Below are positions 3,176 to 27,112 of a DNA stretch of 64,000 nucleotides, one piece after another. The notes below the pieces were generated by a model that saw only the letters and a program-made list of their open reading frames with translations, made no database searches and was not told where the DNA came from. The stretch is from contig JAZQFX010000029.1 in assembly GCA_045539695.1 (NCBI GenBank), forward strand, positions 275 to 64,274, written 5' to 3'. The DNA is from Acutalibacteraceae bacterium. GTDB lineage: Bacteria; Bacillota; Clostridia; Oscillospirales; Acutalibacteraceae. Position numbers and translations under genes: made by a program. Every line of letters begins with the position of its first letter. Position 1 is the first letter of the stretch.

Positions 3176-3209
3176 AACAAAAAAGCACCTACCCCGAAAG
3201 GTAAGTGCT
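3176..3209 (-). terminator. Intrinsic terminator
   Basis: The minus strand reads GCACTTACC-TTTCGG-GGTAGGTGC, a 9-bp stem with one G-U pair, followed by TTTTTT. Confidence 0.6.
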
Positions 3210-3414: not shown

Positions 3415-3420
3415 ATTGTT

Positions 3421-3449
3421 ATTTTAGCATATGTTTATTCAATTGTCAA
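3421..3449 (-). promoter_or_regulatory. Sigma-70 type promoter
   Basis: The minus strand has TTGACA (3449-3444), an exact 17-nt spacer, then TAAAAT (3426-3421). Confidence 0.55.
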
Positions 3450-3712
3450 ATTACGAAAAACGCGATTATTTGTGTTTATTAAATGTTATAGGTTGTTATA
3501 GGACGAAAAAAGCCACTTTTTGCAGTTTGTAAACATTTTGTGAACATTTGAAAAGTCTACCACATCGAAGAAATGCGGTAGAGTTAATGCTATTTAACAA
3601 ACTTTTTCTTTTCTACAGATTTAATATAGTTCTTTTGTAATTCTTGTAGCTTATAGAAGAAAGCAGTTTCGGATTTCGTCAATAAATTGTTTTCTCGCTT
3701 TTGCTTTAATAA

Positions 3713-4270: not shown

Positions 4271-4286
4271 TTTGAACATCTTAAAT

Positions 4287-4316
4287 AAAAAAGTGGCGAG
4301 GAATATGCTCCCCGCC
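4287..4316 (-). terminator. Intrinsic terminator inside the DUF3800 5' leader. It could equally mark the end of a roughly 95-nt sRNA.
   Basis: The minus strand reads GGCGGGGA-GCATAT-TCCTCGCC, then ACTTTTTT, ending 17 nt before the ATG at 4270. The leader is locally GC-rich. Confidence 0.45.
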
Positions 4317-4380
4317 TGCGATGGCCCCAGAGCTTGCGCCCAAGCCAATGCATTTCGGATACTAGGTATCCTTTTGCACC

Positions 4381-4542: not shown

Positions 4543-4571
4543 TATACTAAAATCTTAGAGGAGTAATGATA

Positions 4572-8581: not shown

Positions 8582-8594
8582 AGGTGGAAAAATT

Positions 8595-9575
8595 ATGGAC
8601 TGTTTAGAACCAAAAAAACTTGCTCTGATAAGAATTTATCAAATTTTCAAAGTGTATAGCGACTATGATCATCCGTTAACTCAGGATGATATTTCAAATC
8701 ATTTAGAGAAAAACTATGGTATCACCATAGAAAGAAAAGCAATAAGCCGAAATATTTCTTTACTTAAAGAAGCAGGTATTGAAATAGAATCCCGCAAGGC
8801 CGGTAGTTATCTCGGGTCAAGAGAGTTTGAAGACAGTGAACTGCGTATGCTGATCGACGGTGTGCTTGCAAGCAAATACATAACCGCCAATCATTCAAAG
8901 TATTTAATCGAAAAACTTTGTAAGTTATCAAACAAATATTTTAGATCCCATGTTAAAAACATTTACTCAGTTAACGACTGGAGTAAAACGGACAACCAAG
9001 CGTTGTTCTATAACATTGAACTCATCGATGATGCAATAGAACACGGTAAACAAATCAAGTTCGATTATAACAAGTATGGTATTGATAAAAAGTTGCACCG
9101 AACCAAAACCCATCGTGCCAGTCCGTACCAATTAATCCTCCATAATCAACGCTATTATCTTATGTCGCAAAGCGAACATTGGCACAACATGGCCTATTAC
9201 AGAGTTGACCGAATAACCAATATGACTATACTAGATTTGCCATCTACTCCAATAACTTCAATCGAAGGATTCGAAAGCGGAATCAACTACAAAGAAATTG
9301 CATCTTCCCTGCCTTATATGTACACAGATAAGTTAGAGCATATTGAGTTTACAGCTCATCGTGGCATAATTGATCAAATAGTTGATTGGTTTGGTAATGA
9401 AGTTCATTTCAAGGAAATTGACAAAGATTATGTGAGTGTATCTATAAAGGCTAGTCCAAACGCAATGGAACACTGGGCTATGCAATATATTAACTACGTT
9501 GAAGTAATCAAGCCGATAGCTTTAAGAAACCGAATAAAAGAAAATATAAATAAGGCAACAAGAAAGTACAAATAA
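8595..9575 (+). CDS. WYL-domain transcriptional regulator (wHTH plus WYL, BrxR/CapW-like)
   Basis: The N-terminal winged HTH reads LTQDDISNHLEKNYGITIERKAISRNISLLKEAG. The WYL core reads NQRYYLMSQSEHWHNMAYYRVDRITNM. The start is at MDCLEP, with an AAGGTGGA RBS. Confidence 0.75.
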   Translation: MDCLEPKKLALIRIYQIFKVYSDYDHPLTQDDISNHLEKNYGITIERKAISRNISLLKEAGIEIESRKAGSYLGSREFEDSELRMLIDGVLASKYITANHSKYLIEKLCKLSNKYFRSHVKNIYSVNDWSKTDNQALFYNIELIDDAIEHGKQIKFDYNKYGIDKKLHRTKTHRASPYQLILHNQRYYLMSQSEHWHNMAYYRVDRITNMTILDLPSTPITSIEGFESGINYKEIASSLPYMYTDKLEHIEFTAHRGIIDQIVDWFGNEVHFKEIDKDYVSVSIKASPNAMEHWAMQYINYVEVIKPIALRNRIKENINKATRKYK

Positions 9576-10781: not shown

Positions 10782-12800
10782 ATGTTGTTTTATAAGATTG
10801 ACACAACCCTTATTGATGAAGATTCCCTTCCTACTTCCAGAGAGCGTGACAGTTTCAGAACGTTAGCAGCAGAATATAAAGAAAAGAGCGACTCATTCTA
10901 TCATAAAATCAAAGAACAAAGATTTTTCTTTGTTTCAAATACAAATAACGGACACGTCGTTATGGGTGCTATCTCAAATGATGCCAGCACAATCGAAAAA
11001 GATTGTAACAAATATATTAGATTGCTTGGCATCAAGGTAAATAACATCCATATTGAGGAGATCACGCTGCGTTCTATGGATTCTTTGCTCTCAACTGCAA
11101 GTCGAAATGACTTTGTTAACAGTGATGATGAAATCCTTGAACGCTTTGGAATTGATTGCCTTGTTGGTCATAGAAGTTATTCAGAGTATGGAGAATCTAT
11201 GATTGACACAAGCTTAAACAAAGACGAACTGATTAAAAAATCCAATAATCTACTGATGGAAGATACGCTTACCGCAGAAATAAATCGAATCTATGAGGTC
11301 CCGGCTGCTAAGAACTCAAGTGGACACCCTGTTCATTATCTTGTTAGAACAGACAATCGTGATAACAGAAAATCTATTTATAAAACTTTGCTTTCTGCAT
11401 TATATTCAAATAATCGTGTGAAGAGCAAAAGATATTGTTTTGTAGATTATGATGATAGAAGCAATCTGCCAGATGGTGAATACGAAGCTTTGTATCGTAG
11501 CTGTGAAAACAGTGCGATTATTGTAAGGTATTCTACCGAAGAGTCAAGCGGCGGTCAGTTTGCCAAATCCGGAGAGAATGTTATTGCTGCACTTTGCGAA
11601 TTTGCTCTTAGATATAGGAACAAAGTTTTAACGGTATTTTGCTTACCGATTGAAGCAGAAAAAGCACGCTCCGTGCTTCTGAGCAATCTTAACAACACAT
11701 CTTTAATCGAATTGCGTGAGGATGTTGTGAATTCGGAAAGAGCTAACGAATATCTTAAAATAATGGCCAAGAACTACAAAATCAGAACAGACAAAAATCT
11801 TTTTCCTGTATGTAAAGAAGGTCAATTATTTACCGCAACAGAATTAAGAGATATCTTTGATAAATGGTACGACCAAAAACTTCGAAATAACATCTTCCCT
11901 CAATATAAAGAGGCTCAAACTGTAAAAAGCGATATTGTAAAAGCAAAACCATGTGGTAGCGCTTATGATGAACTAAGTGAAATGGTTGGTCTTTCCAAAG
12001 CCAAGGAAACCATTGACCAAGCGCTTAATTTCTACAAAGCACAGAAGCTATTTAAAAATAAAAACATTTCCTTTAATCGCCCTGCTATGCATATGATTTT
12101 TGCAGGCAATCCCGGAACTGCTAAAACAACCGTTGCTCGTCTCTTTGCGCAAATAATGAAAGAGAACGGACTTTTATCTAAAGGCAATTTGTATGAAGTC
12201 GGTCGGGCAGATCTTGTTGGTAAATATGTAGGTCATACTGCACCACTTGTAAAGCAAGCATTTAAGAAAGCGCGCGGAAGCGTGTTGTTTATTGATGAAG
12301 CATATTCACTTGTAGACGACAAGGACGGGCTTTTTGGTGATGAAGCAATAAACACTATTGTTCAAGAAATGGAGAACAATCGTGATGATATGATAGTGAT
12401 TTTTGCCGGCTATCCAAATAAAATGGAACAGTTCCTCAGTAAAAACCCTGGTCTGCGTTCTCGCATCGCTTTCCACATTCCTTTTGAAGACTATTCTTCT
12501 AACGAGCTTTGTGACATCGCAAAGATGATTGCTTCTTCACGCGGTCTTGCATTATCAGATGATGCCGTATGCAAATTGGATAGCATATTTTCTGATGCAA
12601 GAAAGAACAGCGATTTTGGCAACGGCAGATATGCCCGCAATCTTATCGAAAAGGCGCAAATGGCTCAAACAAACCGCCTACTCAAAGGTGACATCAACAG
12701 TATAAATGATGAGATTTTAAGCACAATTACTGCTGATGATATCGAAACACCCAAAATTTGTTGCGAAACTCCTAAAGTTAAAATCGGCTTTGCTTCATAA
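10782..12800 (+). CDS. CbbX/SpoVK/EccA-type AAA+ ATPase with a large N-terminal region of about 400 aa
   Basis: Walker A is FAGNPGTAKTTVARLFA and Walker B is VLFIDEAYSL. Also present are EAINTIVQEMENNRDDMIVIFAGYPNKMEQF and NPGLRSRIAFHIPFEDYS. The N-terminal part (HPVHYLVRTDNRDNRKSIYKTLL...) looks like a degenerate second AAA-like module. Confidence 0.85.
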   Translation: MLFYKIDTTLIDEDSLPTSRERDSFRTLAAEYKEKSDSFYHKIKEQRFFFVSNTNNGHVVMGAISNDASTIEKDCNKYIRLLGIKVNNIHIEEITLRSMDSLLSTASRNDFVNSDDEILERFGIDCLVGHRSYSEYGESMIDTSLNKDELIKKSNNLLMEDTLTAEINRIYEVPAAKNSSGHPVHYLVRTDNRDNRKSIYKTLLSALYSNNRVKSKRYCFVDYDDRSNLPDGEYEALYRSCENSAIIVRYSTEESSGGQFAKSGENVIAALCEFALRYRNKVLTVFCLPIEAEKARSVLLSNLNNTSLIELREDVVNSERANEYLKIMAKNYKIRTDKNLFPVCKEGQLFTATELRDIFDKWYDQKLRNNIFPQYKEAQTVKSDIVKAKPCGSAYDELSEMVGLSKAKETIDQALNFYKAQKLFKNKNISFNRPAMHMIFAGNPGTAKTTVARLFAQIMKENGLLSKGNLYEVGRADLVGKYVGHTAPLVKQAFKKARGSVLFIDEAYSLVDDKDGLFGDEAINTIVQEMENNRDDMIVIFAGYPNKMEQFLSKNPGLRSRIAFHIPFEDYSSNELCDIAKMIASSRGLALSDDAVCKLDSIFSDARKNSDFGNGRYARNLIEKAQMAQTNRLLKGDINSINDEILSTITADDIETPKICCETPKVKIGFAS

Positions 12801-12813
12801 AGGGGCTGACACA

Positions 12814-13635
12814 ATGTATATTACAAAATTACATATTGTAGGTTTCGGAAACATCACTTCCGAAACCTTCTCCCTCAACGAACAACCCTCAATCATTAAA
12901 TCGGATTTTTGCGATGAAATTGTCGCAGCTTTGAAATTAATTTTAGGTTACAGCAACAAAGTATACTATTTAAAAAAATCAAGCATCATAAATGCCGAGT
13001 TCAATGGCGAGTCGAATATTACAGTTACATATTCAGGCAGCAAACTCAAAGCCTACAATGAACAAGGCGAAGATATTACTGAAGATTACTTAAACATCAT
13101 GTCTCACAATTCAGAGGAAGATTCATTAAATGTTTTTCAGCATTTCAAAAAACAAAAATATCCTCATAGGCTTCTAAAGTACAAGGATATGGATAGATAT
13201 TACGGAGAACACGATTTCAGAAACATCACAGATGGATATGGAGTTACAAGAAGTTTTAGAGCTTTTTTAAATGAATACATTAAAACCTTTAATCCTATTA
13301 AAATCAATCAAGATAAAGAATATTTTGTTCATCTGCTACCATCTGGAGAATTTGTTGTCAAATATAAAGACGAGCCTATTACACCTTATCTTAGTGAATC
13401 TGAATCAGTATTGTATCATTATATCTGTTTTTTGTGCCTTGCTGATTTTTGGAGCCGCGCCGAAAGTATTCGTAACATAAACCGGATTAATAAGCCCATT
13501 ATCATATCTGACTTTTTAGAAAGAATCGATAGTTCTATTAATCTTTCCGACATTATGAAACGTACTTTGAATTTAGAAAGACAAACAATAATAATTGTAC
13601 CCAAAAAGTGCAATGACTTGGAGTGTGACACATAA
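12814..13635 (+). CDS. Hypothetical protein (273 aa). The N-terminus resembles an SMC/RecF-type ATPase head but lacks Walker A.
   Basis: The N-terminus MYITKLHIVGFGNITSETFSLNEQPSIIKSDF has the beta-strand pattern of ABC/SMC heads, with no GxxGxGKS motif. The C-terminal PIIISDFLERIDSS is Walker B / D-loop-like. An AAAGGGG RBS precedes the start. Confidence 0.5.
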   Translation: MYITKLHIVGFGNITSETFSLNEQPSIIKSDFCDEIVAALKLILGYSNKVYYLKKSSIINAEFNGESNITVTYSGSKLKAYNEQGEDITEDYLNIMSHNSEEDSLNVFQHFKKQKYPHRLLKYKDMDRYYGEHDFRNITDGYGVTRSFRAFLNEYIKTFNPIKINQDKEYFVHLLPSGEFVVKYKDEPITPYLSESESVLYHYICFLCLADFWSRAESIRNINRINKPIIISDFLERIDSSINLSDIMKRTLNLERQTIIIVPKKCNDLECDT

Positions 13636-13994
13636 TGGATAATAATGAGAAAAAAGAACGTATGATGAATGCCATTAGATTATGGTGTATAGAACAGGGA
13701 TTAAACGAAATCACAGATAATGAAACCTATTATTACTATACAGATATTGCATTCACGAAAGATAATAAGGTAACAGGTTTCATTTTTGAGTTTGATAGAG
13801 ATGATGAGCGACTCATGTTTAGGATGGTGTTTTCAAAAGACATCTGTGATTATGTTTATGTGGTTACAGATGACTCTAAAAAGCGAAAAGAACTATCTGA
13901 AAAAATCATGGATGAATACGGATTACTTTGCTATTCCAATAGTTTTGGGTTGGGATATGTTTATCAAGTTTTAAAGGAACCATCATTATTATAA
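13635..13994 (+). CDS. Hypothetical protein (119 aa)
   Basis: The start codon overlaps the upstream stop (TAATG). No motif was recognised with confidence. Confidence 0.5.
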   Translation: MDNNEKKERMMNAIRLWCIEQGLNEITDNETYYYYTDIAFTKDNKVTGFIFEFDRDDERLMFRMVFSKDICDYVYVVTDDSKKRKELSEKIMDEYGLLCYSNSFGLGYVYQVLKEPSLL

Positions 13995-14027
13995 TCAACT
14001 ATTTTTAACACAAAAAGGATTGATCAG

Positions 14028-14465
14028 ATGAATGAAAATATAAATACCTTTGATTTTTTAAACCCTATCGGTCATATTGAAGTCGGTGATAAACCGATTA
14101 AGTTATCCAACATTTCGGATAACTTACAAACAGGAAATTTAGTCGTTGTTTTTTCAGATAGCAATAAAGATTTCGAGAACCTAGCAAAAAAGTTATGCAA
14201 CCAAAAGAACCTATTGATATTGAACAAAGGAATAAAGAGCTTCTCGTTTTTGAAAAAGAAATCCCAAAAGCTTAATAAGACGGTATTTGTAAAACTTAAT
14301 ACCAAAAAGCTCGACAAATACAAACGAAAAAAACATTTTACAAAAAAAGTTTCACTCAGCCTACACATTAAACATAAACCATATTACTATATAGCAGGTT
14401 GTAAAAATCACTCTACTGACTTTAATATTGGATGGACTGTGATAGGGTTAGAAGAGATAGCATAA
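14028..14465 (+). CDS. Hypothetical Lys-rich protein (145 aa)
   Basis: An AAAGGA RBS is present. The gene lies 33 nt after the previous one. Confidence 0.45.
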   Translation: MNENINTFDFLNPIGHIEVGDKPIKLSNISDNLQTGNLVVVFSDSNKDFENLAKKLCNQKNLLILNKGIKSFSFLKKKSQKLNKTVFVKLNTKKLDKYKRKKHFTKKVSLSLHIKHKPYYYIAGCKNHSTDFNIGWTVIGLEEIA

Positions 14466-15792: not shown

Positions 15793-17289
15793 CTAGTTTA
15801 CAACTTCTCGTAATTTCTCCCACACCTTAACCATTGCATATGTATCAAGTTCGCAATATTTGAGCAGGTTGTGGCGGGTGCGGGCAGCTTCATCGGGTTC
15901 CATATCTTTAATGTGTGGAAATATTGTCATTGCCTCGGTGCCGTTGTGAATATCCTCGAGATTGTGATAATCAAGCTCGTGGTCGTTGGGGAACAGTGCC
16001 GGGAGCACGCTCTTGATTGAAAAGCTACCGCCCATATCTCGCGTGTAATAATGACCTGACTGAAAGGGTTTTAGCAAATCAACAATATTTTCCCTTATAT
16101 TCATCAGGTGGTCGGCAAGGTCGGGGAAACTTTCGGCAAGCTCTTTAAGTCTGCTACATTCAAAGCCCTTGTTATACGCCGTTACACAAACACCCATAGG
16201 TATGTTTTCGCAAAGGCTTTCGGCAATGGGGCGGCGGGGGTCAACGCCCGATTCGGCCAAAAACTCTTTGTGCTTTAGTTCGCCGCCCTCGTGTTCAATA
16301 TAGTGTAGCGAATACTGAAACGGTATTTGCTGATATGGATGGGTGCTGGGAAATTCGGGAATAGTTAACTGCATCGTTTCAAAATCAAGAAAATATAACG
16401 GATACGAAAGGTTGTCAAGGAAATCTTCGATGCCTTTTTTAAATATATATGGCTCGCGAGTTTCGGTGGCGTGAAGCATCTGTATTATCCATTTTTCGTT
16501 TTTGATTTTGGTATCATAAAGCAATTGTTCGTAAGATGTTTTACCTTCATAATAGTATTTAAGAGCGGGTTTAAACTGTATCCTATAAAGGTCAAAAACA
16601 TTTGGCTTTGGCAAATGCTTGGTGCAGTGACCCCAAAACGCACAGTCATATGGATCGCGGCAATGAAGACCTATGTCTTTTTGTGGTTCCTCTTTCATAG
16701 CGTAGATGGCTTCCGCTTTTTTCAATAACGAAGGCACATTCTGGAATTCATCGTTTACTTCCGCAGATATATCAATTATTTGAAAAAATTTGTGTATATC
16801 AATTTCCTCACCACGAACATAGTTACTATCTATACAGATAAGGTATGTTCCGGTGATATTTATACCGCAATGCTCTAAAACATATTTTTGATATGATACA
16901 TCAACGGCATAAATGTGTGATGCGTGGGTAGAGCTTTTAACCTCGTAAATCGCATATCCATCGGCTGTTTTGCGCAGAATATCTACCGCGCAATAAAGAC
17001 CGTTATAGTCAAAAGATGCCTCACATATATTTTCTACTCCGTTAGCAATACACTGCTTTGTCAGTTCTTTCATACGGTTAAGGTCGAGGCTGCCGTCGGG
17101 TTTGTGAGCGGTTACCTCAACATAATCACCGAACAGCCCCATAGCCATATCGCCCACAACATTACCGCCGTCAAAGCGCGCCTGAAGCGCTGCGTCAACG
17201 GGTTTTAGTTCTGGTCTATATTTGTTTAGCCATAAATTTTTTGGACACTGCCATACTTGACAGTATTTTGATTTTGAAAAGTAGAACAT
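15793..17289 (-). CDS. DUF2779 domain protein (PD-(D/E)xK-like N-terminus, exonuclease-like C-terminus)
   Basis: The N-terminus MFYFSKSKYCQVWQCPKNLWLNKY matches the remembered DUF2779 signature (SKS..f..g.QCpK.LWL). The gene is visibly more GC-rich than both flanks. Confidence 0.7.
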   Translation of the reverse strand: MFYFSKSKYCQVWQCPKNLWLNKYRPELKPVDAALQARFDGGNVVGDMAMGLFGDYVEVTAHKPDGSLDLNRMKELTKQCIANGVENICEASFDYNGLYCAVDILRKTADGYAIYEVKSSTHASHIYAVDVSYQKYVLEHCGINITGTYLICIDSNYVRGEEIDIHKFFQIIDISAEVNDEFQNVPSLLKKAEAIYAMKEEPQKDIGLHCRDPYDCAFWGHCTKHLPKPNVFDLYRIQFKPALKYYYEGKTSYEQLLYDTKIKNEKWIIQMLHATETREPYIFKKGIEDFLDNLSYPLYFLDFETMQLTIPEFPSTHPYQQIPFQYSLHYIEHEGGELKHKEFLAESGVDPRRPIAESLCENIPMGVCVTAYNKGFECSRLKELAESFPDLADHLMNIRENIVDLLKPFQSGHYYTRDMGGSFSIKSVLPALFPNDHELDYHNLEDIHNGTEAMTIFPHIKDMEPDEAARTRHNLLKYCELDTYAMVKVWEKLREVVN

Positions 17290-17499: not shown

Positions 17500-17892
17500 A
17501 TGAGTATTTACAAAGGTATATTTTGGTATGTTCCGGGTGAACACAAGCTTATCGCAGTTAAAGTCGCTTGTGATGAAAATGGCAATGCGTTAGAAAATAC
17601 AAACTATTCCTCTAAATCGGGAGAGAATTTTAATCACAAAATCGAATGGAATAAGCTTCATAAGGACGTAACCAAAAAGAATCCTTACAACTATTACCCA
17701 CGTGGAAGGGTTGAAATTAAAAATAGCAAGGTAAAAATCTTTTTAAATTCCACTTTAAATGAGTCTGAATTACTTAAATTAATCTATTCGGAATTTTCTT
17801 TGTCTAACTATATTGAGCTTAAAGCAATTTCCGATAATTCAAAACATTACAATTATTTAATGGAATATGGAAAAGGTGATAAAAATGAATGA
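17500..17892 (+). CDS. Hypothetical protein (130 aa)
   Basis: A GAAGGGGG RBS is present. The conserved-looking stretch YNYYPRGRVEI was not assigned to any family. Confidence 0.55.
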   Translation: MSIYKGIFWYVPGEHKLIAVKVACDENGNALENTNYSSKSGENFNHKIEWNKLHKDVTKKNPYNYYPRGRVEIKNSKVKIFLNSTLNESELLKLIYSEFSLSNYIELKAISDNSKHYNYLMEYGKGDKNE

Positions 17893-18331: not shown

Positions 18332-19030
18332 ATGATTTACGCTATGAGCGACCTACATGGTTGTTACGACAAGTATATTAAAATGCTTGAAAAGATAAGG
18401 TTTAACGAAAATGACATCCTTTATATATTGGGCGATATTGTTGACAGGGGTCCTGATGGAATAAAAATTTGGCAAGACATTATAAATCGAAAAAATGTTA
18501 TTGCGCTTCGTGGTAACCATGATTTTTTAGCATATCACTTACTTAAAATTTTAAGCAAAAGTTCCTTGTTTGATGTTTTAGGTTCAGGACAAGACGATGG
18601 ATTTGTAGAAAAATATCGCAGTTGGATTTTTGATGGCGGCTTATCTACTGAAGAAGGCTTTAATGAGTTAGATGAATCTGAAAAAAAGAAACTCTTACTG
18701 CATATGAGCTATATGCCGATTTACGAAGAAATTGAAGTAAACGGTAATAAATTCTTTTTATCTCACACCGTTCCTAGTAAAGAACGGATGCAGAATTTTA
18801 ATAAGCTTTTATGGCAGGAATTTATTATTGGTGAACCGGAATATGAAAAAGAATACTTCCCTGATAAGTTTATCGTAACCGGGCATACACCGACAGGATT
18901 TATTGATCCAAAATGCAAAGGTAAAATCTGGCATGGCAATAATCATATTGCCATTGAATGTGGTGCTGCATTCGGCAATCCGCTTGGCTGCATTTGCCTT
19001 GATACTCTTGAAGAATTTTATGTGGAATAA
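18332..19030 (+). CDS. PPP-family metallophosphoesterase (lambda-phosphatase/PrpE-like Ser/Thr phosphatase or Ap4A hydrolase)
   Basis: Motifs present are MSDLHGCYD, LGDIVDRGPDG, LRGNHD and GHTP. Confidence 0.8.
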   Translation: MIYAMSDLHGCYDKYIKMLEKIRFNENDILYILGDIVDRGPDGIKIWQDIINRKNVIALRGNHDFLAYHLLKILSKSSLFDVLGSGQDDGFVEKYRSWIFDGGLSTEEGFNELDESEKKKLLLHMSYMPIYEEIEVNGNKFFLSHTVPSKERMQNFNKLLWQEFIIGEPEYEKEYFPDKFIVTGHTPTGFIDPKCKGKIWHGNNHIAIECGAAFGNPLGCICLDTLEEFYVE

Positions 19031-19047: not shown

Positions 19048-20181
19048 ATGAGATTCAAAATAACATCAGCAGGAAATAATTCGACATTTGGGGATGTGTT
19101 TTTTAGTGTGCCTACAAAAGAAGAAATGCAAAAGGCAGAAAAAAGAGTTGCAGAAATTTGTCATGAAAAAGCATTAAAGATATATAAAGATAACCCAAAC
19201 GTTTTTGAGAACGAAATATTTACCAGAATCGAAAAAGAAATCGAAAAAATGAGTGCCACCGAAACGGTATATCATTTCCTAGTTTTGAAAGAAATCGCAG
19301 AAGTATCCAGAGAAGCGGGATTCCCTATTATGACCGAAGGCAACCTTTCCGGTTCTGTTATTTCTTACTTACTTGGTATTACCGAATACGACCCTATGAG
19401 TTTCAACCTGGATTATACCCCAATTGAACTTCTTTGGGGCACAGATGAAACTGTTTTAACACCAGATTTTTCTACAGGCATCGCTCCGCAAATCCGTCCG
19501 TTAATACATAGCAGATTGGATTCAAAATATGGATTTGTTGACTGTAATAAAGATATTTACAAGCAACTCTCGCTGACAGATACTACCATATGCGAACGAC
19601 TGGGGCAACTCTTGAAAGTCACCGATACAAAACCATCCTTTAAAGATTATAACGATAAGATTTATATTCAAGTTATCAAAAATATTGCAGATGATTATAT
19701 TTGCGAATTTGAAGAACTAAAAAAAGAAGGCTATATGTTTGATGAAGAACTGCCCCACGTTTTATCTTTCGCAAAAGATTTAAAGCTGATGAAACATTGT
19801 AATTTTAAACAATTACTTCGTTTATATGCATATCGACACGGATCTTTCAACACTAAGAAAAGTCTAAGCACTTTATCAAATGATTTCTTTACTACTCGTG
19901 ATGAATTCTTCAATGCATTAATTTATCATAAAGTCCCCGATGCCGTTGCTTTGGACATTGTAAAAAAAGGCGTATGGTCAACCCAAGACAAACGCAAAAA
20001 ATATACAGAAATTCTCAGCTCTTATAACACACCCGAATGTGTATCTGAATACTTTTCCAATGTCCGTCATCTTTGGGAAACACATGCTTGTATTAGCAGA
20101 TTGATGCTTATGTGTACTATTGCCTGGTACCAAATTAATTACCCCACAGAGTTTATGACACTTGAAAATGGAGAATTATAA
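19048..20181 (+). CDS. Truncated, catalytically degenerate PolC-like protein (mini C-family polymerase paralog)
   Basis: GNLSGSVISYLLGITEYDP corresponds to the PolC motif RGSVGSSxVAxLxGITxVNPL. TPDFSTG replaces the catalytic PDIDLNF. The C-terminal HACISRLMLMCTIAWYQINYPTEF corresponds to FPKAH...YPxEF. Confidence 0.6.
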   Translation: MRFKITSAGNNSTFGDVFFSVPTKEEMQKAEKRVAEICHEKALKIYKDNPNVFENEIFTRIEKEIEKMSATETVYHFLVLKEIAEVSREAGFPIMTEGNLSGSVISYLLGITEYDPMSFNLDYTPIELLWGTDETVLTPDFSTGIAPQIRPLIHSRLDSKYGFVDCNKDIYKQLSLTDTTICERLGQLLKVTDTKPSFKDYNDKIYIQVIKNIADDYICEFEELKKEGYMFDEELPHVLSFAKDLKLMKHCNFKQLLRLYAYRHGSFNTKKSLSTLSNDFFTTRDEFFNALIYHKVPDAVALDIVKKGVWSTQDKRKKYTEILSSYNTPECVSEYFSNVRHLWETHACISRLMLMCTIAWYQINYPTEFMTLENGEL

Positions 20182-20182
20182 T

Positions 20183-21199
20183 ATGGATATTTTAAGATTT
20201 ATAAATTCAAAGGACATACGAGAATACCTAAAAACAATAAACTATGAATTCAATTCCCTCGAAGCAGCGTGGCTCATCTATCAGTGCAGGAATGCAACCA
20301 TTGAGGAAAAGCACGCGGCTTGGCGAGAACTCATTAATACTATGCCAGATTGTGAAATAAAACAAGCAGCTATTTGCCGGCATAGCCTTCATAGTTTTTT
20401 GAACGAGTTTTTAAAAACAGAAAACAAAATTTTAAATGAGTTTTTTAACAACACAGAAAATTCCATATATTCCTACGAGTGGTGGGAAGATAATATGTGG
20501 CACCCAAGAAATCCCTATTGTTCGAATTATGAAGATATTCTTGCTTCATATGACAGCCTTGAGAAATGCTTCAGTAAAAATGGCGTTTATTCTACCGAAT
20601 ATGAACGTCCCGAAAAATATAGAATAATCAAACAAGAGCTAAATAACGGAACCATCATAACAGTTATTTTTTCAAAAGATAATAAGGTTATTAATTATAG
20701 TTTTGGTTTTTCCCCGAGCAACAATGAGTATTTGTATGATGAGAGTGTACTTTTTACATTTGATAACCTATATTTCAACTTCCCTACTCCTTTCAAAAAA
20801 GGAGATATCTTATGTATACAATATGAACAATCCAATATCCCAAGGCATTTACATCGTGGCCCGTTTGTGCTGACAGAACTATGCACGGAAAATACTATGT
20901 TGCAAAAAATTCTTCGACCATTTGAAATGGTTGCGTCTGGAATTTTCCAAAATGAAAATGGGCTAATATATGAAGCTCCGACCACTAATTATATGGATCT
21001 TGAATATTACAGAGGCGAACTTGACGGCAAAAAGCAAATTTTGAAAGCCTTTAGAGATTTTTATATGAATAAACTTAACGTCATTGACCTCACAAATACA
21101 TACCACCTTACTTTAACCCAAGAAAACACCAAGGATATTGAATACTTCGTTAAGAACAATAAAAAAAGCGACAAGGAGGCTTGTTGTGAACATCCTTAA
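20183..21199 (+). CDS. Unknown-family protein, paralog A (338 aa)
   Basis: The start MDILRFINSKDIREYL has a GGAGA RBS. It shares FNSLEAAWLIYQCRNATIEEKHAAWRELI, FPTPFKKGDILC and YMDLEYYRGE with paralog B. Confidence 0.6.
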   Translation: MDILRFINSKDIREYLKTINYEFNSLEAAWLIYQCRNATIEEKHAAWRELINTMPDCEIKQAAICRHSLHSFLNEFLKTENKILNEFFNNTENSIYSYEWWEDNMWHPRNPYCSNYEDILASYDSLEKCFSKNGVYSTEYERPEKYRIIKQELNNGTIITVIFSKDNKVINYSFGFSPSNNEYLYDESVLFTFDNLYFNFPTPFKKGDILCIQYEQSNIPRHLHRGPFVLTELCTENTMLQKILRPFEMVASGIFQNENGLIYEAPTTNYMDLEYYRGELDGKKQILKAFRDFYMNKLNVIDLTNTYHLTLTQENTKDIEYFVKNNKKSDKEACCEHP

Positions 21200-22166
21200 T
21201 TTTATAAATTCAAAAGACATACGAGAACATATGAAAGCCATAAACTATGAGTTTAATTCCCTTGAGGCAGCTTGGCTCATCTATCAGTGCAGGAATGCAA
21301 CCATTGAGGAAAAGCACGCGGCTTGGCGAGAACTTATAAGAACAATGCCAGACTGTAAAATACCAGAGCGTATTAACGCTAACCCACACGATAGCTTACA
21401 CAATTATCTGCGGAAATACATTGATTACGAAGAAAACGTTTTTGATGAGTATTTTACCTCTACTGAAAATTGGATTTATACTGTCGAATGGTTAGAGCAA
21501 GACACTTGGTTTTCAAGTGACAAACTATATAAGACCTTTGAAAAAGCCCAACAAGAGTTACTTGAGGAGTTTAAAGATTGGGAAAGAAAATATATTTATA
21601 GAATCACTAAACAAAAGCTCGAGAGCAAGCAATACATAACCGTATATTTCGATAAGAATAACGAGCCGTATGATTACGGTATATGTGAATACCCCGAGAA
21701 ACTTACAGAAATTTTGTACGGAGTGTTTGACGGTCTTTGGTTTGACTTTCCGACACCGTTTAAAAAGGGAGATATTCTTTGCCAATATGATTTATATGGT
21801 AAAGAAACATCTGGATTTTGCCGTGGACCTTTTGTTATGAAAGGCATTACACCCGATGAAGTTCGAGATTGGACTAGAAAAGACGGAGACACAAGCGATA
21901 TGAACGCTTGGGGATATTTTCAAGGCCCTGACGGTACAATTTACTACGAAGTAATGCATAACTATATGGATCTTGAATACTACCGAGGCGAGTTTACAGG
22001 AAAAAAGCGAATTTTAAAGGCACTTGGTAACTTCCTTAAAGGCGAAATAGATGTTGAACTTATGTGCAGAGCGTATCATTATCTTATGTGCGATGAATAT
22101 ACTAAAGATTCTATTCCTCAAGGTTTTACAAATGAAGGCTTAAAGCTGGCAGGTGTAATAGAATGA
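21186..22166 (+). CDS. Unknown-family protein, paralog B (326 aa, GTG start)
   Basis: An AAGGAGG precedes the GTG at 21186 (VNILNFINSKDIREHM). It overlaps paralog A by 14 nt. Confidence 0.6.
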   Translation: MNILNFINSKDIREHMKAINYEFNSLEAAWLIYQCRNATIEEKHAAWRELIRTMPDCKIPERINANPHDSLHNYLRKYIDYEENVFDEYFTSTENWIYTVEWLEQDTWFSSDKLYKTFEKAQQELLEEFKDWERKYIYRITKQKLESKQYITVYFDKNNEPYDYGICEYPEKLTEILYGVFDGLWFDFPTPFKKGDILCQYDLYGKETSGFCRGPFVMKGITPDEVRDWTRKDGDTSDMNAWGYFQGPDGTIYYEVMHNYMDLEYYRGEFTGKKRILKALGNFLKGEIDVELMCRAYHYLMCDEYTKDSIPQGFTNEGLKLAGVIE

Positions 22167-22564
22167 ACATATTTATAGGGGGCTCTAAAAACATAGGTAG
22201 ACTGTCACCTACTGTAAAAAAGATGCTATGTTCCATAATCAGAAGTAATCATCATATTTTAATCGGTGACTGTTACGGTATCGATTTGGCCGTGCAACAC
22301 TTTTTGAATGAACAAAAATATGATAGCGTAACCGTTTATACTGCCTGCAATTGTGCAAGACATAACGTGGGCGGTTGGAAAGAAATAAATATAGCCACCG
22401 ATAATGTTGGATTTACTGCTCACAGAGAAAAAGATGATGCGATGGCAAACGCTTGTGATTTTGGAATTATGATTTGGAACGGTAGTAGCAAAGGAACCTT
22501 TGCCAATATTAAAGACTTAAGAACTTTAGGAAAAAAGGTTGTGGTTATAAATGAAGATACCTGA
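22163..22564 (+). CDS. Small SLOG/DprA-like Rossmann-fold protein (133 aa)
   Basis: IFIGGSKNI...ILIGDCYGIDLAVQHFL...VTVY...IMIWNGSSKGT follows the GSR / GDAxGxD / SxGT pattern of DprA and SLOG-type nucleotide-binding domains. The start overlaps the upstream stop as ATGA. Confidence 0.45.
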   Translation: MNIFIGGSKNIGRLSPTVKKMLCSIIRSNHHILIGDCYGIDLAVQHFLNEQKYDSVTVYTACNCARHNVGGWKEINIATDNVGFTAHREKDDAMANACDFGIMIWNGSSKGTFANIKDLRTLGKKVVVINEDT

Positions 22565-23612
22565 TTTGATAAACGAACTTTTTGAATCAAGAGAGATGTC
22601 TGAATACCTTATTGAACATTCCGCAGAACTCTCAAAATACAACATTTTGCGAATGGTTTGTAGCGCACCTATTGATATACGACGTAAAGCTGAAATATTA
22701 TTAGAACTTTCAAAGGATGAGAATATCGAAAAAGAAATAGCAGAAAAATTAAATTGCGGAAGCATAAATCATTCTGAGAAAAAAGAAATAATAGAACGAA
22801 TAAAAGAAGATTCTTTTCGCTTTAATTATGAATGCGTTTCAAAAGCAATAGAACACTTACATTGTAAATCTGGCGATGTATTTACTATGCAGAATATCTG
22901 GCACGATGAAGACGGTACTGTCACTCGCAAAAAGGGTGATTTTTATCTGTCATCCTCCTTTGAAAACATATTGACCTTAATCAAAGATTATATGGAGTTC
23001 GAAGGATGGTCTTTTATCGATAAAAATGCATATTCTTGGTTTGAAATAACAAAGTGGTCTCTCAATAAAAACGGTGACTACGATGCAATTATTGTATATG
23101 AGTTTGTAAATAACAAACTTATGTATTATTTCTATGTAGAAGACAAAAAATCAAACTTCAATATATTTGAGCCTAATTGCGACCTGAATTTAACAACTCC
23201 GTTTACAACAGGTAATATTTTGACTGTTGATTGCTGTCCTTATAAACCCGAAAGAAATATACTCATTCTTGAAAATATCACTAACGACGATTGCTGTTCC
23301 TTACAAGGATTGTATTATGATCCTACTATACAACTCTTTAACATTGGCGCCGTTAAACATGCCTCTATGTATCGCGGATTGTACCGTCCATCCGTTTCAC
23401 CATTATACCGAATCTCTGAGAATGTTAATGAACTGTCCAATGAAGAAGCAATCTTCAAGGATATTAAATCATTTTTAAGCGGAGATTCCCAAAAAGGACA
23501 AGAAATGTGGTCATGGATTTACAACACCAAAACAAACAAAGAAAAAAGAAAGTTAAAGAATTCGGATGGTGTTACAGCTGAAGAAATCAGACGATATATG
23601 GAGGAAAATTAA
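22551..23612 (+). CDS. Unknown-family protein, divergent paralog C (353 aa)
   Basis: It has the same length and layout as A and B: an N-terminal helical segment, then LNLTTPFTTGNILTV matching FNFPTPFKKGDILC. It overlaps the upstream gene by 14 nt. Confidence 0.55.
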   Translation: MKIPDLINELFESREMSEYLIEHSAELSKYNILRMVCSAPIDIRRKAEILLELSKDENIEKEIAEKLNCGSINHSEKKEIIERIKEDSFRFNYECVSKAIEHLHCKSGDVFTMQNIWHDEDGTVTRKKGDFYLSSSFENILTLIKDYMEFEGWSFIDKNAYSWFEITKWSLNKNGDYDAIIVYEFVNNKLMYYFYVEDKKSNFNIFEPNCDLNLTTPFTTGNILTVDCCPYKPERNILILENITNDDCCSLQGLYYDPTIQLFNIGAVKHASMYRGLYRPSVSPLYRISENVNELSNEEAIFKDIKSFLSGDSQKGQEMWSWIYNTKTNKEKRKLKNSDGVTAEEIRRYMEEN

Positions 23613-23613
23613 G

Positions 23614-23907
23614 ATGTATTTTATCACTTGTTTTAATCAAATTGAAAACGACTTCTCTGATGATATAAGAACTTTCGGTTTTTTTAAAGATATAAAAACT
23701 TGCCGAGAAGCTCTTAATGAAAATTGGTGTGATATGCATGAATGTTGTTACACCTTTGCCGTAATTGAACGAATAGAACCAGGAATCCATCCTAAATCCG
23801 AAAAGATCACTTGGTTCAAGTGGGATAAGAACAAATCTGGATTTTTTGAGGTTGATAACCCCATAGGTGCAGGTAATTTAAGCAATTATGCTATTGCCAT
23901 TGGATAA
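23614..23907 (+). CDS. Hypothetical protein (97 aa)
   Basis: A GGAGGA RBS is present. The start lies 2 nt after the upstream stop. Confidence 0.5.
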   Translation: MYFITCFNQIENDFSDDIRTFGFFKDIKTCREALNENWCDMHECCYTFAVIERIEPGIHPKSEKITWFKWDKNKSGFFEVDNPIGAGNLSNYAIAIG

Positions 23908-23944
23908 GCCTATAAATCATAAAACAGAATGAGGTAAAAGACAT

Positions 23945-26900
23945 ATGAAAAAAATTAAAACTCTATTTTACGAAATCGATGAAATTTTAAATAACAACAA
24001 CGGTGAAGGCAAACTGATAGCACTCGGTTCTCGTCCTGGTATGGGCAAAACATCATTACTTTTAGATATAATGTTAAATACTGCATTGTTTAACGATGTG
24101 GATATTTTATTATTTACCTTGGAAATGACGAAATCGCAAATCATTGAACGGTTATTAAAAAAGCAAGATTTAACACCTGAAGAGTTGAATAAAATACATA
24201 TAGACGAAATCGAAAGTGGTATGCCGAGCAGTGACTATATCGAAAAGGTAATATCATACTATAATAAACAAAAAGTTATTTTTATCGATTATATTAACTT
24301 AGTAGAAGATTACACGCGTGAGAATTCAGCAAATATATTATTAAGGCTTAAAACCATCTGCAAAGAAAAAGGTATACATATTATTTATACCTGTCAGTTA
24401 CCAAAAAGTTTAGAAACACGTGCTAACAAACGTCCGGTTTTAGAGGACATAGACGAAATCACCCGTACCACAGTCGATGCGATATTTGCGCTTTACAGAC
24501 CTGCATATTATACAGGTAATAACAACACCACTGCAGAACTGCGAGCATTAAAACATCCTTCAGGCGAGTTATTGGAAATTCCTCTAGTTTTCGATAATAA
24601 AACCCTCAGCCTATACTATGATATAAAATTCGGACTTGATGATGCTCCCATAAAACGTGTTGAACTTTCAGTACACACAAAAATGTCCGATGATGTTTCA
24701 ACTATAAGTGTCCAAGAGGCTTTCGATTTTGCCGACAGCTGCAACCACAAGGCTATTGCCTTTACCAATTATAATAATGTTCAGGATTTCCCCGAAATTC
24801 GAAACATTTCAGGAAAATACCATAATCTCAAGGTTATATATGGTGCCAGAATACTTTACGAAAACGATAACGGCGGTGCATGGGCTACAACGTTACTAAT
24901 TAAAAATCAGCAGGGCGTCAAAAACTTATACAAACTCATCTCTTCTATGACAAATATGGGGAATACAAAAATCGCTCATATAAATTTCATCGAGCAATAT
25001 AGAGAAAATTTGCTTTGCAGTGCTTGTGGTGATTTAAGCGAATTGTATTGCGCCTTTCAATCTGAATCACCTATGGACGAAATCAAGGCAATAGCACAAA
25101 GATATGATTACTTTGAAATCTTCCCAACCAATGATATAAAAACTCGCTCTATTTATCAGAAAATAGTTAAATTGGGCAAGGAGTTGAATATACCTGTTGC
25201 AGCCACGGGAGACTGTCATTATTATTCTAAAGGCGATGAAATCTACCGCCGAGTTGTAAAAGAATTTAAAGGCGGAGCTGATGACAATAATCAGCAATAT
25301 CTTCGTAATACTGAAGATATGCTTAAGGCATTTGCCTACTTAGGTGAAGAAGATGCTTATGATGTAGTTATTAAAAATCCCAATTTAATTGCAGATATGA
25401 TTGAGCAGGTAGAACCGCTATCTACTGATATTCCAGAATTTGAAATTCCAGGAGCAGATGATTTCATTACAAAAGAAGCAACTTCAAAAGCTGTTTTTAT
25501 ATATGGGGAACATCTGTCTCCCACCGTTGAAGAAAGATTAAACAGTGAGCTAAAAATAATAAAAAACAACGGTTTTTCTTCGCTTTATATGTTAGCTCAT
25601 CTTCTTGCAAAATATGCCCACAAAAATGGACAACCAACAAGTTCTCGCGGATCAGTAGGTTCTTCGTTTGTGGCCTTTCTGTTAGGTATAACAAATGTTA
25701 ATCCGTTACCGCCACACTATTATTGTAGCGAGTGCTCTTTTACGGACATAGATCCTAATATTTGTTCAGGTTATGATTTAGAAGAAAAGAACTGTCCGTT
25801 ATGCGGAAAACCCCTTGTCCGCGATGGTCATAATATTCCGTTTGAATCATTTATGGGATTTTATGGAAGTAAACTACCTGATATTGATTTGAATTTCCCT
25901 TCTTCTTTTAGGAACAATGTACTGGAATACCTTTGTGAACTGTTTGGACAAGAACGGCTTTTAATAGCCGGTACAATTCGTACATTAACTCCCACAGATG
26001 CTGAAATGTATGTGAATATGTATCAAGAAAAGAATGACCAAGAGTTTGAGCAGAAATTGGTCGCTTCAATTATAAGAAATATTGATGGAGTTAAGCGACA
26101 AGAGTCCATACATCCTGGCGGAGTATTTATTCTGCCCGAAGGGAAAGGGGCTTGCGATTATACACCAACCAAAACTCTTAATAATCATTCCCCAATAAAA
26201 AAGAAAACACATTTAGAATTCAATAGTTTACAAGACAATATTTACAAAGCTGACATCCTTGGATTCATTCCGTTAGAAATTTTAGCACGCCTTGAAAAAT
26301 ACACGGGTGTTTCCTCAAAAGACATTGATATTACTGATCCGAAAATTTATGAACTTTTTAAGGATTCACGCGTAATCGGGATTGTCTCCGATGAACCGGC
26401 CACTTCTGGATTGCCTGAATTTGACACCGATTTTGTCCGTAATATGATTAAACAAACTCATCCTAAAAACTTTGGAGATTTGGTAAAAATCAGTGCTTTA
26501 TGTCATGGCACAAATACCTGGTTCTATAATGCTGAGGAATTGCTTAAAAACAATGTTTGTAGTTTAAATGATTTACCCGCCTCAAGAGAAGATATATATA
26601 ACCATCTTGTATCTTGCGATATTGAAAGGCCACTAGCATTTAAAATAATGCAGGCTGTTCGAAAAGGTGAATTTATGCGTATAGGGTTAAATAAAGATCC
26701 AGAAGTTATTAAGGCTTTCGCTACTCATAATATTCCTGATTGGTATATGGATTCACTTTGCAAAATTAGATATATGTTTCCTAAAGCACATTCAGTTGAA
26801 TATGTTAAAACGGCATTAACTCTCGCTTGGTACAAAATTTATTTTCCAACAGAATTTTATGCTGTAACTTTCAATGTACGCTTCCCTGACAGAAATTATA

Positions 26901-27112
26901 GTTTCCTTTGTGGAGGATTAGAAGTTATAAATCAATACTTAGAAGATGTTAAATTGCCTTTTGGTTCTGAAAAAGAAGATTCGATTGATCGAGAATTAAA
27001 TTTGTTTAAGGAATGTGCGGAAAGAGGCATAGTTTTTGAATGTAATACCAACAAAGGAAATTGCTCCGAACCATATTCCGTCTCTAACGGCAAAATACTC
27101 TTAAACTATTAA
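23945..27112 (+). CDS. Fusion of a DnaB-C-terminal/RecA-fold ATPase domain with a PolC-type C-family DNA polymerase. The polymerase part lacks the exonuclease, OB and N-terminal domains.
   Basis: Residues 1 to about 230 carry GSRPGMGKTS, FTLEM, VIFIDYINLV and ALYRPAYY. From about residue 238 the PolC-type motifs appear: VELSVHTKMSDD (degenerate PHP), LLIKNQQGVKNLYKLIS, RGSVGSSFVAFLLGITNVNPLPPHYYCSEC...CPLCGKPL, IPFESFMGFYGSKLPDIDLNF, HPGG, KADILG and FPKAHSVEYV...YFPTEFYA. Confidence 0.8.
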   Translation: MKKIKTLFYEIDEILNNNNGEGKLIALGSRPGMGKTSLLLDIMLNTALFNDVDILLFTLEMTKSQIIERLLKKQDLTPEELNKIHIDEIESGMPSSDYIEKVISYYNKQKVIFIDYINLVEDYTRENSANILLRLKTICKEKGIHIIYTCQLPKSLETRANKRPVLEDIDEITRTTVDAIFALYRPAYYTGNNNTTAELRALKHPSGELLEIPLVFDNKTLSLYYDIKFGLDDAPIKRVELSVHTKMSDDVSTISVQEAFDFADSCNHKAIAFTNYNNVQDFPEIRNISGKYHNLKVIYGARILYENDNGGAWATTLLIKNQQGVKNLYKLISSMTNMGNTKIAHINFIEQYRENLLCSACGDLSELYCAFQSESPMDEIKAIAQRYDYFEIFPTNDIKTRSIYQKIVKLGKELNIPVAATGDCHYYSKGDEIYRRVVKEFKGGADDNNQQYLRNTEDMLKAFAYLGEEDAYDVVIKNPNLIADMIEQVEPLSTDIPEFEIPGADDFITKEATSKAVFIYGEHLSPTVEERLNSELKIIKNNGFSSLYMLAHLLAKYAHKNGQPTSSRGSVGSSFVAFLLGITNVNPLPPHYYCSECSFTDIDPNICSGYDLEEKNCPLCGKPLVRDGHNIPFESFMGFYGSKLPDIDLNFPSSFRNNVLEYLCELFGQERLLIAGTIRTLTPTDAEMYVNMYQEKNDQEFEQKLVASIIRNIDGVKRQESIHPGGVFILPEGKGACDYTPTKTLNNHSPIKKKTHLEFNSLQDNIYKADILGFIPLEILARLEKYTGVSSKDIDITDPKIYELFKDSRVIGIVSDEPATSGLPEFDTDFVRNMIKQTHPKNFGDLVKISALCHGTNTWFYNAEELLKNNVCSLNDLPASREDIYNHLVSCDIERPLAFKIMQAVRKGEFMRIGLNKDPEVIKAFATHNIPDWYMDSLCKIRYMFPKAHSVEYVKTALTLAWYKIYFPTEFYAVTFNVRFPDRNYSFLCGGLEVINQYLEDVKLPFGSEKEDSIDRELNLFKECAERGIVFECNTNKGNCSEPYSVSNGKILLNY

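Follow-up and report, generated by a model that had tools for sequence, protein, structure and literature searches.

What kind of protein joins, in one polypeptide, a DnaB-type ATPase to the core of a replicative polymerase, and why is it carried on a genomic island? The question is raised by an open reading frame (ORF) at 23945–27112 on the plus strand of a 64,000-nucleotide (nt) stretch of an Acutalibacteraceae genome (GenBank assembly GCA_045539695.1, contig JAZQFX010000029.1, positions 275 to 64,274), which as a whole we refer to as the window. C-family polymerases are regarded as a conserved, central part of the bacterial replisome. An earlier note, drawn from the letters of the window, had read this ORF as a degenerate DnaB ATPase module fused to a PolC core without a proofreading domain. 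We found that residues 1–225 of its product are a DnaB C-terminal RecA-fold domain and residues 238–1055 a PolC core, and that the gene is not the replicative PolC of the host.

The ORF is one uninterrupted frame of 1055 amino acids (aa) plus a stop codon, preceded by a ribosome-binding site (GAGG at 23931–23934, 10 nt 5′ of the ATG), and it closes a series of overlapping or abutting plus-strand genes that begins at 17500. Pfam assigned DnaB_C to residues 1–220 (expectation value (E) 5e-31), PHP to 241–387, and DNA_pol3_alpha with DNA_pol3_finger to 508–869. The AlphaFold2 (AF2) monomer model reached a mean predicted local distance difference test score (pLDDT) of 88.9 and a predicted template-modelling (TM) score of 0.72, with only the linker at 227–230 disordered. 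When this model was searched with Foldseek, the body matched PolC structures (E 5e-71; TM 0.72–0.77, obtained against PolC 3F2B) and the N-terminus matched DnaB C-terminal domains. Pfam, NCBIfam, structure alignments, AF2 and Foldseek thus agree on a DnaB_C-like ATPase joined to a minimal PolC core. From the N-terminus, the plus-strand gene encodes the P-loop domain (aa 1–225, 23945–24619; Pfam, DnaB structure alignments, a family motif table and Foldseek), an inter-domain linker holding the fusion junction (aa 226–237, 24620–24655, with low pLDDT at 227–230), a PHP domain that lacks the DnaQ insert and is depleted in metal ligands (aa 238–500, 24656–25444), the PolC palm, thumb and fingers (aa 501–1032, 25445–27040; Pfam, PolC alignment and Foldseek) and a short C-terminal tail (27041–27109).

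The junction is genuine and conserved. About 30 clusters at 90% identity, drawn from NCBI, ENA, JGI and Logan assemblies, share the DnaB_C–PHP–polymerase architecture; in a word-indexed search they were 35–72% identical to the window protein, and none carries a protein name. The ratio of nonsynonymous to synonymous substitution rates (dN/dS) between the window gene and its relatives was 0.09–0.25 in each of three regions, pointing to purifying selection; these figures are approximate, synonymous sites being near saturation. Because the identical collinear fusion recurs in these clusters across four independent data sources, at dN/dS of 0.1–0.25, we rejected a frameshift or assembly chimera, which the earlier note had named as a way for its finding to fail.

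Alignment to the solved PolC structures 9QPC and 3F2B (the latter from Geobacillus kaustophilus) showed which parts of PolC are kept. The fusion shares the PHP–palm–thumb–fingers fold of PolC (3F2B; 9QPC/9QRL) at 33–40% identity, and its palm is intact. The dNTP-binding RGSVGSS lies at 568–574, within a longer palm motif at 568–588 that the earlier note had picked out; the catalytic pair D646/D648 (P645-D646-I-D648, nt 25880–25888, in KLPDIDLNF at 643–651) aligns with the PolC catalytic motif PDIDLNF, and the third catalytic aspartate, D770 (K768-A-D770-ILG, nt 26252–26254, in KADILG at 768–773), with PolC KxDILG. That note had therefore assigned the aspartate triad correctly. The Cys4 zinc module that it read as CSEC (594–597) and CPLCG (617–621) comprises C594, C597, C617 and C620, invariant over 68 aligned sequences, and HPGG (723–726) and YMFPKAH (943–949) are further PolC motifs.

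The same alignment showed what has gone. Query residue 236 aligns with PolC residue 360, and therefore the PolC N-terminal and OB region has been replaced by the DnaB_C module. The DnaQ (DEDDh) exonuclease insert, about 210 residues long at PolC 427–639, has shrunk to about 9 query residues, and PF00929 had no match in the fusion protein, unlike canonical PolCs; both absences agree with the first description of the protein. A further loss had been missed there: that of the HhH domain and the clamp-binding tail. The fusion protein stops at the equivalent of PolC residue 1386 of 1474, its final residues being NGKILLNY, whereas canonical PolCs extend past that point into HhH (PF14579) and then a QxxxF-type clamp motif at the C-terminus (QFSMF at the end of P0044, for instance). 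PF14579, present in canonical PolCs, was not found in the fusion protein or in any fusion, and a regular-expression search for a Qxx[LM]xF-like clamp motif returned none anywhere in the fusion protein.

The PHP domain departs from PolC less completely than had been claimed. The earlier note held that its metal ligands were lost, with VELSVHTKMSDD (239–250) in place of the HxH motif and AFTNYNNVQ (272–280) in place of the DH motif. Both replacements are where it put them, and the ligands are indeed depleted, but the loss is partial: the ligand nonad HHDHEH[C/H]DH (PMC12926913) reads S242, H244, D250(?), Y276, R302, A314, C361, D423 and H425 in the fusion, and 4–5 of the 9 positions remain because C361, D423 and H425 are retained and HxH is only half lost (S242-V-H244). 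By the nonad definition of that survey (PMC12926913) the domain would count as inactive; the nonad is optional as a PolC criterion, being inactive also in a fraction of genuine PolCs. The PHP region is nonetheless the most strongly conserved part of the fusion protein (dN/dS 0.09–0.15). What is encoded here is a PolC core stripped of all the parts that tie PolC to the cellular replisome or give it fidelity, namely the N-terminal and OB region, DnaQ, an active PHP domain, HhH and the clamp tail.

Could this simply be the ordinary replicative PolC of the host, a dnaB/polC chimera or a decaying pseudogene? Its best matches outside the fusion family are canonical PolCs at 35–40% identity, and some plasmids do carry dnaB and polC as neighbours. 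But the protein, although a strong match to the NCBIfam PolC equivalogs NF001688 and TIGR01405, falls below their cut-offs (760.2 bits against 873, and 727.1 against 1043) and below that of the DnaB model TIGR00665 (101.8 bits against 385), and five PolC modules are missing. On the plasmid pCY186, moreover, PolC precedes DnaB, the reverse of the fusion order. We rejected this explanation and give it next to no credence; the PolC part is also island-encoded with a fused DnaB_C module, unlike the core-genome PolC.

The N-terminal module combines an intact nucleotide-binding site with ruined helicase motifs. Like DnaB C-terminal domains and DnaB_C-only proteins, it has the fold and the RPGMGKT, SLE, IDY, KRP...D and YR motifs. 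The Walker A GSRPGMGKTS (28–37, with G32, K35 and T36), FTLEM (57–61) and the Walker B VIFIDYINLV (111–120) stand where they were first reported; RPGMGKT[T/S] and D115 are invariant across the fusion family, and the catalytic glutamate E60 (S-L-E60) is kept in the window protein and most members. The degradation of other DnaB motifs to CQLPK (150–154) and EDIDEITRTTVDA (167–179) also held up. In alignments to DnaB structures, the loop that contacts single-stranded DNA (ssDNA) has changed from SDLRESG to E-D-I-D170-E-I-T, an Arg-to-Asp change shared by almost the whole family. The arginine-finger motif KQRNG, which the earlier note did not discuss, reads K203-H-P205-S-G207, so that only the neighbouring lysine stays; the finger position is proline or another residue across the family, with arginine kept only in the divergent pair P0039 and P0046 (KNRHG). 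Every member besides these two has lost both the finger and the loop arginine. The alignment begins at residue 186 of Bst DnaB, with no DnaB N-terminal domain or linker; we take residue 186 to lie past the N-terminal collar and the linker helix, which together hold the hexamer in place. Judged by these residues, the module probably still binds ATP and may hydrolyse it, and it is unlikely to act as a DnaB-type ring helicase because the ssDNA-loop arginine and the arginine finger are gone.

The fusion family is very rare and, as far as seen, restricted to gut Oscillospirales metagenome-assembled genomes (MAGs). An exhaustive hidden Markov model search with a junction-spanning profile against 1.84 billion cluster representatives found five that cross the junction (P0009, P0025, P0032, P0121 and P0135). 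With one genome per GTDB species, the fusion was present on 2 contigs and a short form lacking the N-terminal fusion on 8, and all 10 contigs belong to Acutalibacteraceae, Oscillospiraceae or unclassified Clostridia MAGs. In a scan of metagenome contigs with the same kind of profile, ordinary DnaB genes dominate among the matches listed. No fusion was found in 50,697 phage records (INPHARED), 72,556 plasmid records or IMG/VR. We rejected a phage gene, there being no junction-spanning match in INPHARED or IMG/VR, and a plasmid gene, the sole record covering both halves being pCY186, where a full-length PolC and a DnaB are encoded separately and in the opposite order. Two unverified gut contigs labelled ‘Bacteriophage sp.’ (MT835953.1, 7903–11589; MT836562.1, 5686–9495) carry PolC-like ORFs of 1228 and 1269 aa; these have no exonuclease insert of full size, and their alignment with the query starts near residue 232 and runs to its end. 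These ORFs seem to group with the 1141–1238-aa exonuclease-less PolCs P0049, P0070 and P0080, which cluster with canonical PolC; they are the best ‘Bacteriophage sp.’ matches and a different class from the fusion.

In a neighbour-joining distance tree, the short and fused forms together make up a clade apart from canonical PolC, which we call mini-PolC, with fused and unfused forms interspersed inside it. Split, reverse-order and primase-zinc-finger variants exist: P0133 is an independent fusion in which the mini-PolC comes first and DnaB_C sits at the C-terminus, P0123 is a stand-alone DnaB_C gene located directly after a phosphoesterase gene, where the fusion normally starts, and P0121 places a DnaG CHC2 zinc ribbon ahead of its DnaB_C and PHP domains. 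Rosetta-stone logic therefore supports cooperation between DnaB_C and mini-PolC on four counts: the roughly 30 N-terminal fusions, P0133, the stand-alone DnaB_C gene and the interspersed tree.

Genomic context, which the first description of the protein did not cover, is what constrains its function. We counted neighbours across about 20 distinct mini-PolC loci. The polymerase is always the final gene of its operon, and the host gene that follows differs from locus to locus (GGDEF, PadR, a truncated spoVAD, DUF6259 or, in the window, a transglutaminase), from which it follows that the polymerase gene travels with the island. The islands carry tyrosine or serine recombinases, seen in 5 loci. 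The most constant neighbour is a PPP-type metallophosphoesterase, present in 13 of 20 loci and directly abutting the polymerase in 6; a divergently transcribed DUF2779 gene occurs in 8, a SNF2–MoxR–DUF2201 trio in 6 and a 670-aa AAA+ module in 4. Interspersed with these constant genes are variable cassettes, among them a 377-aa polymerase remnant, a 340-aa family, PDDEXK_4, DUF1810 and YAcAr.

Several loci tie mini-PolC to replication proteins. In locus L011, a complete DnaG (zinc ribbon, DNAG_N, Toprim and DnaB_bind) has a stop codon that overlaps the fusion start by 14 nt, an arrangement that would make the pair translationally coupled. In L023 and L024, a fusion of 30% identity has a DnaG gene as its divergent neighbour, so that DnaG adjoins the fusion in two lineages, and genes for DnaA-type AAA+ proteins lie just upstream of mini-PolC genes in L003, L005 and L022. 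Independent fusions in both orders, together with this recurring link to primase and AAA+ proteins, argue that the proteins act together on DNA. Directly 3′ of the L011 fusion, an ORF at 13202–13612 matches only positions 201–328 of the 329 of SpoVAD, which suggests that this island sits inside or beside a sporulation gene, like sporulation-gene-intervening elements.

The megaplasmid pCY186 of Butyrivibrio proteoclasticus (NC_014390.1, 108428–130599) links the islands to plasmid replication. Its replication cluster comprises dnaX, a full PolC, dnaB, a DnaC-like ATPase and Rep, together with two degenerate Pol III alpha-like ORFs (480 and 332 aa) related to the 377-aa protein of the window and to the fusion. 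The N-terminal 120 residues of a pCY186 ‘DnaA/Hda family protein’ are homologous to the product of the first gene of the window operon, a 130-aa protein (w130) at 17500–17892 on the plus strand (34% identity over 121 aa, E 1e-11, confirmed by tblastn), and its C-terminus matches the DnaA-like AAA+ proteins of the islands. The small families shared by islands and plasmid are thus the degenerate Pol III alpha-like ORFs, the w130 domain and the DnaA/Hda-like AAA+ proteins, whereas the plasmid, unlike the islands, has a full-length PolC with separate DnaB and DnaX genes. To judge from these homologies, which are the most direct evidence on the point, the island gene set would descend from the replication module of a mobile element.

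The reading that we prefer, at a probability of roughly 40%, is that the fusion is the DNA-synthesising subunit of an island-encoded mini-replisome or repair-synthesis module that works without a clamp and without proofreading. Motifs alone lead us to call the protein a putative active polymerase and a putative ATPase. The polymerase would extend 3′-OH primers distributively or by strand displacement, with no clamp and no intrinsic proofreading. The DnaB-derived module would serve for ATP-dependent assembly or coupling, docking the polymerase to ssDNA or to partner proteins, and would not be a ring helicase; partners in sister islands would include the DnaG primase and the DnaA/DnaC-like AAA+ protein. 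Since the window has no primase, host primers or nicked 3′ ends would be needed there. Editing or end processing could be supplied in trans by DUF2779, a family described as a Cas4-like PD-(D/E)xK nuclease plus a DnaQ-like RNase H-fold exonuclease and so a candidate trans-acting nuclease or proofreader, and the PPP-type phosphoesterase may heal 3′ ends.

Several observations weigh against this reading. The fusion is absent from the phage, plasmid and IMG/VR sets named above. Within the island of the window we found no initiator, origin, SSB or clamp gene, within the window no primase, and between the integrase end and the polymerase end no att-type direct repeats. Almost every member has lost the helicase-specific residues, which leaves no evident unwinding activity. 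Defence genes (GmrSD, a dGTPase with a PADLOC match at 2e-45, McrBC and a WYL regulator) surround the module. Finally, at least four independent lineages have lost catalytic aspartates and yet persist as conserved full-length ORFs, which is hard to fit with an essential replicative role.

The surrounding genes bear chiefly on a second explanation, in which the fusion belongs to an anti-phage or anti-plasmid conflict system. Its modules would mimic the host replisome as a sensor or decoy, or make aberrant DNA as an effector, while signalling and killing would fall to the nucleases, phosphoesterase, AAA+ proteins and WYL regulator encoded nearby. The island of the window does hold two GmrSD genes, a WYL regulator, a BspA-LRR protein, the Cas4-like DUF2779 and an IetA-like AAA+ protein, and sister loci hold the dGTPase, PDDEXK_4/PDC-S26, McrBC and SNF2–MoxR–VWA genes as well as Fic toxin–antitoxin genes, an RHS toxin and a reverse transcriptase. 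The w130 domain also turns up in a WYL–LRR–GIY-YIG operon, and the operons keep constant ends around variable inner cassettes. This is guilt by association, however, for mobile islands routinely carry defence cargo, and it is the polymerase, the phosphoesterase and DUF2779 that are constant and the defence genes that vary. PADLOC-DB v2 gave the fusion only a weak P-loop match (mad8, 1.8e-6, 25.7 bits, residues 21–157); we rejected a known defence system, as there was no meaningful PADLOC match for the polymerase or for its unassigned neighbours. Coupling to DnaG and DnaA-like proteins and homology to a plasmid replication cluster point instead to replication chemistry, and the catalytic site in the window is intact and under purifying selection. 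We regard a conflict-system role as the main rival, somewhat less probable than the mini-replisome; the neighbourhood, the cassette-like variability and the catalytically dead members speak for it.

In the window protein, its close relatives and the groups at 43% and 36% identity, the aspartate triad reads DDD. Elsewhere it reads DSN (P0013, P0014, P0015 and P0018), RDN (P0016), DDN (P0019), DEN (P0022), SGN (P0032), EDN (P0057) and YDD (P0133). In all of these altered members the zinc module survives, as do the motifs of the PHP domain and the fingers, and each ORF is full-length. Such recurrent inactivation with the ORF kept fits binding or sensing, as a conflict system would require, and the existence of dead members means that catalysis is not the sole selected property of the family. 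The dead fusions occupy the usual island position; in L190, 3 nt separate the end of the phosphoesterase gene from the fusion, and the L189 and L190 islands adjoin the same host gene (DUF6259). Beside the dead fusions lie a 353-aa reverse transcriptase (RVT_1; L190, 7383–8444) and an RHS/Ntox37 polymorphic toxin (L189, 1960–7956).

A second kind of dead polymerase sits in the window operon itself. The gene at 19048–20181 on the plus strand encodes a 377-aa, drastically reduced Pol III alpha-like protein that lacks the catalytic aspartate pair, as identified by Pfam, NCBIfam and cluster searches; what remains is a segment of the palm at the N-terminus and the last part of the fingers. It is not a pseudogene, and its family is conserved and numbers at least 44 clusters (40–97% identity, 325–419 aa). 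L012 has a copy that is 97–98% identical, and distant homologues are encoded in L022 and by the replication cluster of pCY186. In L107 (GCA_054294445.1, 9378–11750) and L108 (5169–7043), homologues of the remnant form part of tiny cassettes between host genes. Ahead of the L107 homologue lies the gene for a 200-aa DnaB_C-like protein whose Walker A is ruined (KPGDGRMN; hhalign probability 80% and E 1.5e-5 against the DnaB_C module), and the three-gene cassette looks like a small conflict cassette built of dead replisome parts, a point for the conflict-system explanation. The 194-aa protein that follows the homologue has a putative PD-(D/E)xK-like motif, seen by eye and unverified. Because the pairing of DnaB_C-like and PolC-like proteins persists where both enzymes are dead, some non-catalytic property, such as scaffolding or binding, would be under selection. 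That the aspartates were lost several times, independently, from proteins that are conserved in other respects likewise points to a second, non-catalytic role, which could be scaffolding or, as a new use of replisome parts, sensing or acting as a decoy in conflict systems.

The build of the fusion recalls another system, the ImuA′–ImuB–DnaE2 (ImuC) mutasome, and with it a third explanation: an error-prone or translesion polymerase that would be a Clostridial analogue of ImuA′–DnaE2, island-borne in the way that umuDC and rumAB are borne on plasmids and integrative and conjugative elements. The architectures are parallel. DnaE2 systems combine an inactive PHP domain and the lack of an exonuclease with a RecA-fold partner (PMC12926913), and the fusion likewise pairs a RecA-fold accessory with a non-proofreading C-family polymerase whose PHP domain is read as inactive, as a non-essential accessory. 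At the head of the window island stands a regulator of the WYL type, a class that has been tied to DNA-damage responses, and the gene is borne on a mobile island. There are also differences. The mutasome consists of separate proteins, uses a DnaE-type polymerase, relies on ImuB for access to the clamp and is regulated by LexA; no Y-family, ImuB-like or LexA-type regulator gene lies near the fusion, which has neither a clamp-binding motif nor a partner to supply one. Phylogenetically the fusion is PolC-derived and not a DnaE2 (93 bits against a cut-off of 939 for NF004225, the PRK05672 model of DnaE2/ImuC), and catalytically dead members would be unexpected in a translesion polymerase. We consider this explanation improbable.

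How new is the protein? The searchable literature, of which our coverage is incomplete, held no description of the fusion or of the mini-PolC clade, in keeping with the earlier note, which knew of no such family; publications on DUF2779, YAcAr and exonuclease-less PolC on mobile elements likewise described nothing of the kind. In a 2026 survey of DNA polymerases in bacteria, the groups recognised are PolC, DnaE1, DnaE2 and DnaE3 alone, and neither DnaB nor a helicase, nor a fusion to one, is mentioned (PMC12926913). What appears to be new is therefore the architecture and its genomic setting, within the known kind of a C-family, PolC-derived polymerase.

The fusion can be set beside other proteins and elements. 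T7 gp4 primase-helicase, Pol theta (a helicase-like domain with an A-family polymerase), pRN1 ORF904 and the NrS-1 prim-pol-helicase all hold a P-loop translocase and a polymerising domain in one polypeptide, and P0121 adds a DnaG zinc ribbon, as gp4 does. To our knowledge, none of these four uses a C-family polymerase, and the translocase motifs of the fusion, unlike theirs, are degraded. Pipolins (piPolB) and casposons (PolB) are self-replicating elements that, like the islands described here, are integrated, bounded by recombinases and equipped with a polymerase of their own, though theirs is of the B family. If the proteins behave as their motifs predict, the family would show that PolC can be reduced to a clamp-independent, exonuclease-free core. 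That core can be carried on genomic islands and can be coupled, covalently or by operon, to an ATPase derived from DnaB and to a DnaG primase. An active member would be the smallest natural PolC-type polymerase, and a tractable one for the priming, strand displacement and fidelity of the PolC core.

A bolder proposal joins these strands: that mini-PolC, fused or not, marks an unrecognised class of integrative element in gut Oscillospirales with its own miniature C-family replisome (DnaG, a DnaB-derived module and the PolC core), a bacterial-type counterpart of pipolins and casposons, whose dead derivatives (the dead fusions, the 377-aa remnant and the degenerate DnaB_C-like proteins) would have been exapted as replisome-mimicking defence sensors. 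We think this unlikely as a whole.

The remaining genes of the window island fit the pattern of constant and variable parts. Upstream of the operon, a DUF2779 gene is divergently transcribed (15793–17289, minus strand), with 63–75% identity across its 8 loci. After w130 comes the PPP-family (ApaH/PrpA/lambda-phosphatase-like) metallophosphoesterase gene (18332–19030, plus strand) and, following the 377-aa remnant, two tandem paralogues of 345 and 342 aa that are 46% identical and belong to an unassigned family (20162–22166, plus strand), which also lies between phosphoesterase and polymerase in L003–L005, L012 and L013. The 5′ regions of the two paralogues share a 162-nt stretch at 88% identity (20198–20359 and 21201–21362). 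Three further plus-strand genes, overlapping or abutting their neighbours, lead up to the fusion (22163–23907; 133, 353 and 113 aa); the 133-aa protein has a weak SLOG/YAcAr-like match (E 0.002 against the YAcAr protein of L003). For the operon proteins of 130, 150, 345, 342, 353 and 113 aa, neither Pfam nor PHROGs yielded an assignment. A 672-aa AAA+ ATPase (AAA and AAA_lid_6) followed by three small genes lies at 10782–14465 on the plus strand, and this AAA+ module recurs with very divergent fusions, the reverse-order one included.

Farther upstream, a pair of GmrSD-type (DUF262/DUF1524) restriction genes lies side by side ahead of the genes for the WYL-domain regulator and the BspA-type LRR protein (4566–9575, plus strand). 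The same WYL–LRR pairing precedes mini-PolC genes in L006, L016 and L018, and R. albus plasmid pRUMAL01 carries it too. No tRNA gene was found near the island. At its far end, a tyrosine integrase is encoded at 374–1378 on the minus strand, and the 2.3 kb beside it (1378–3713) hold no ORF of more than 87 aa and contain several short direct and tandem repeats (for example, 22–24-nt units at 1961–2006 and 2161–2222); this stretch may represent the remains of a gene, or it may be regulatory or origin-like. An Rfam DUF3800-XI RNA motif (4301–4347, minus strand; 41.7 bits against a gathering score of 37.8) lies at the 5′ end of a DUF3800 gene (3713–4348, minus strand).

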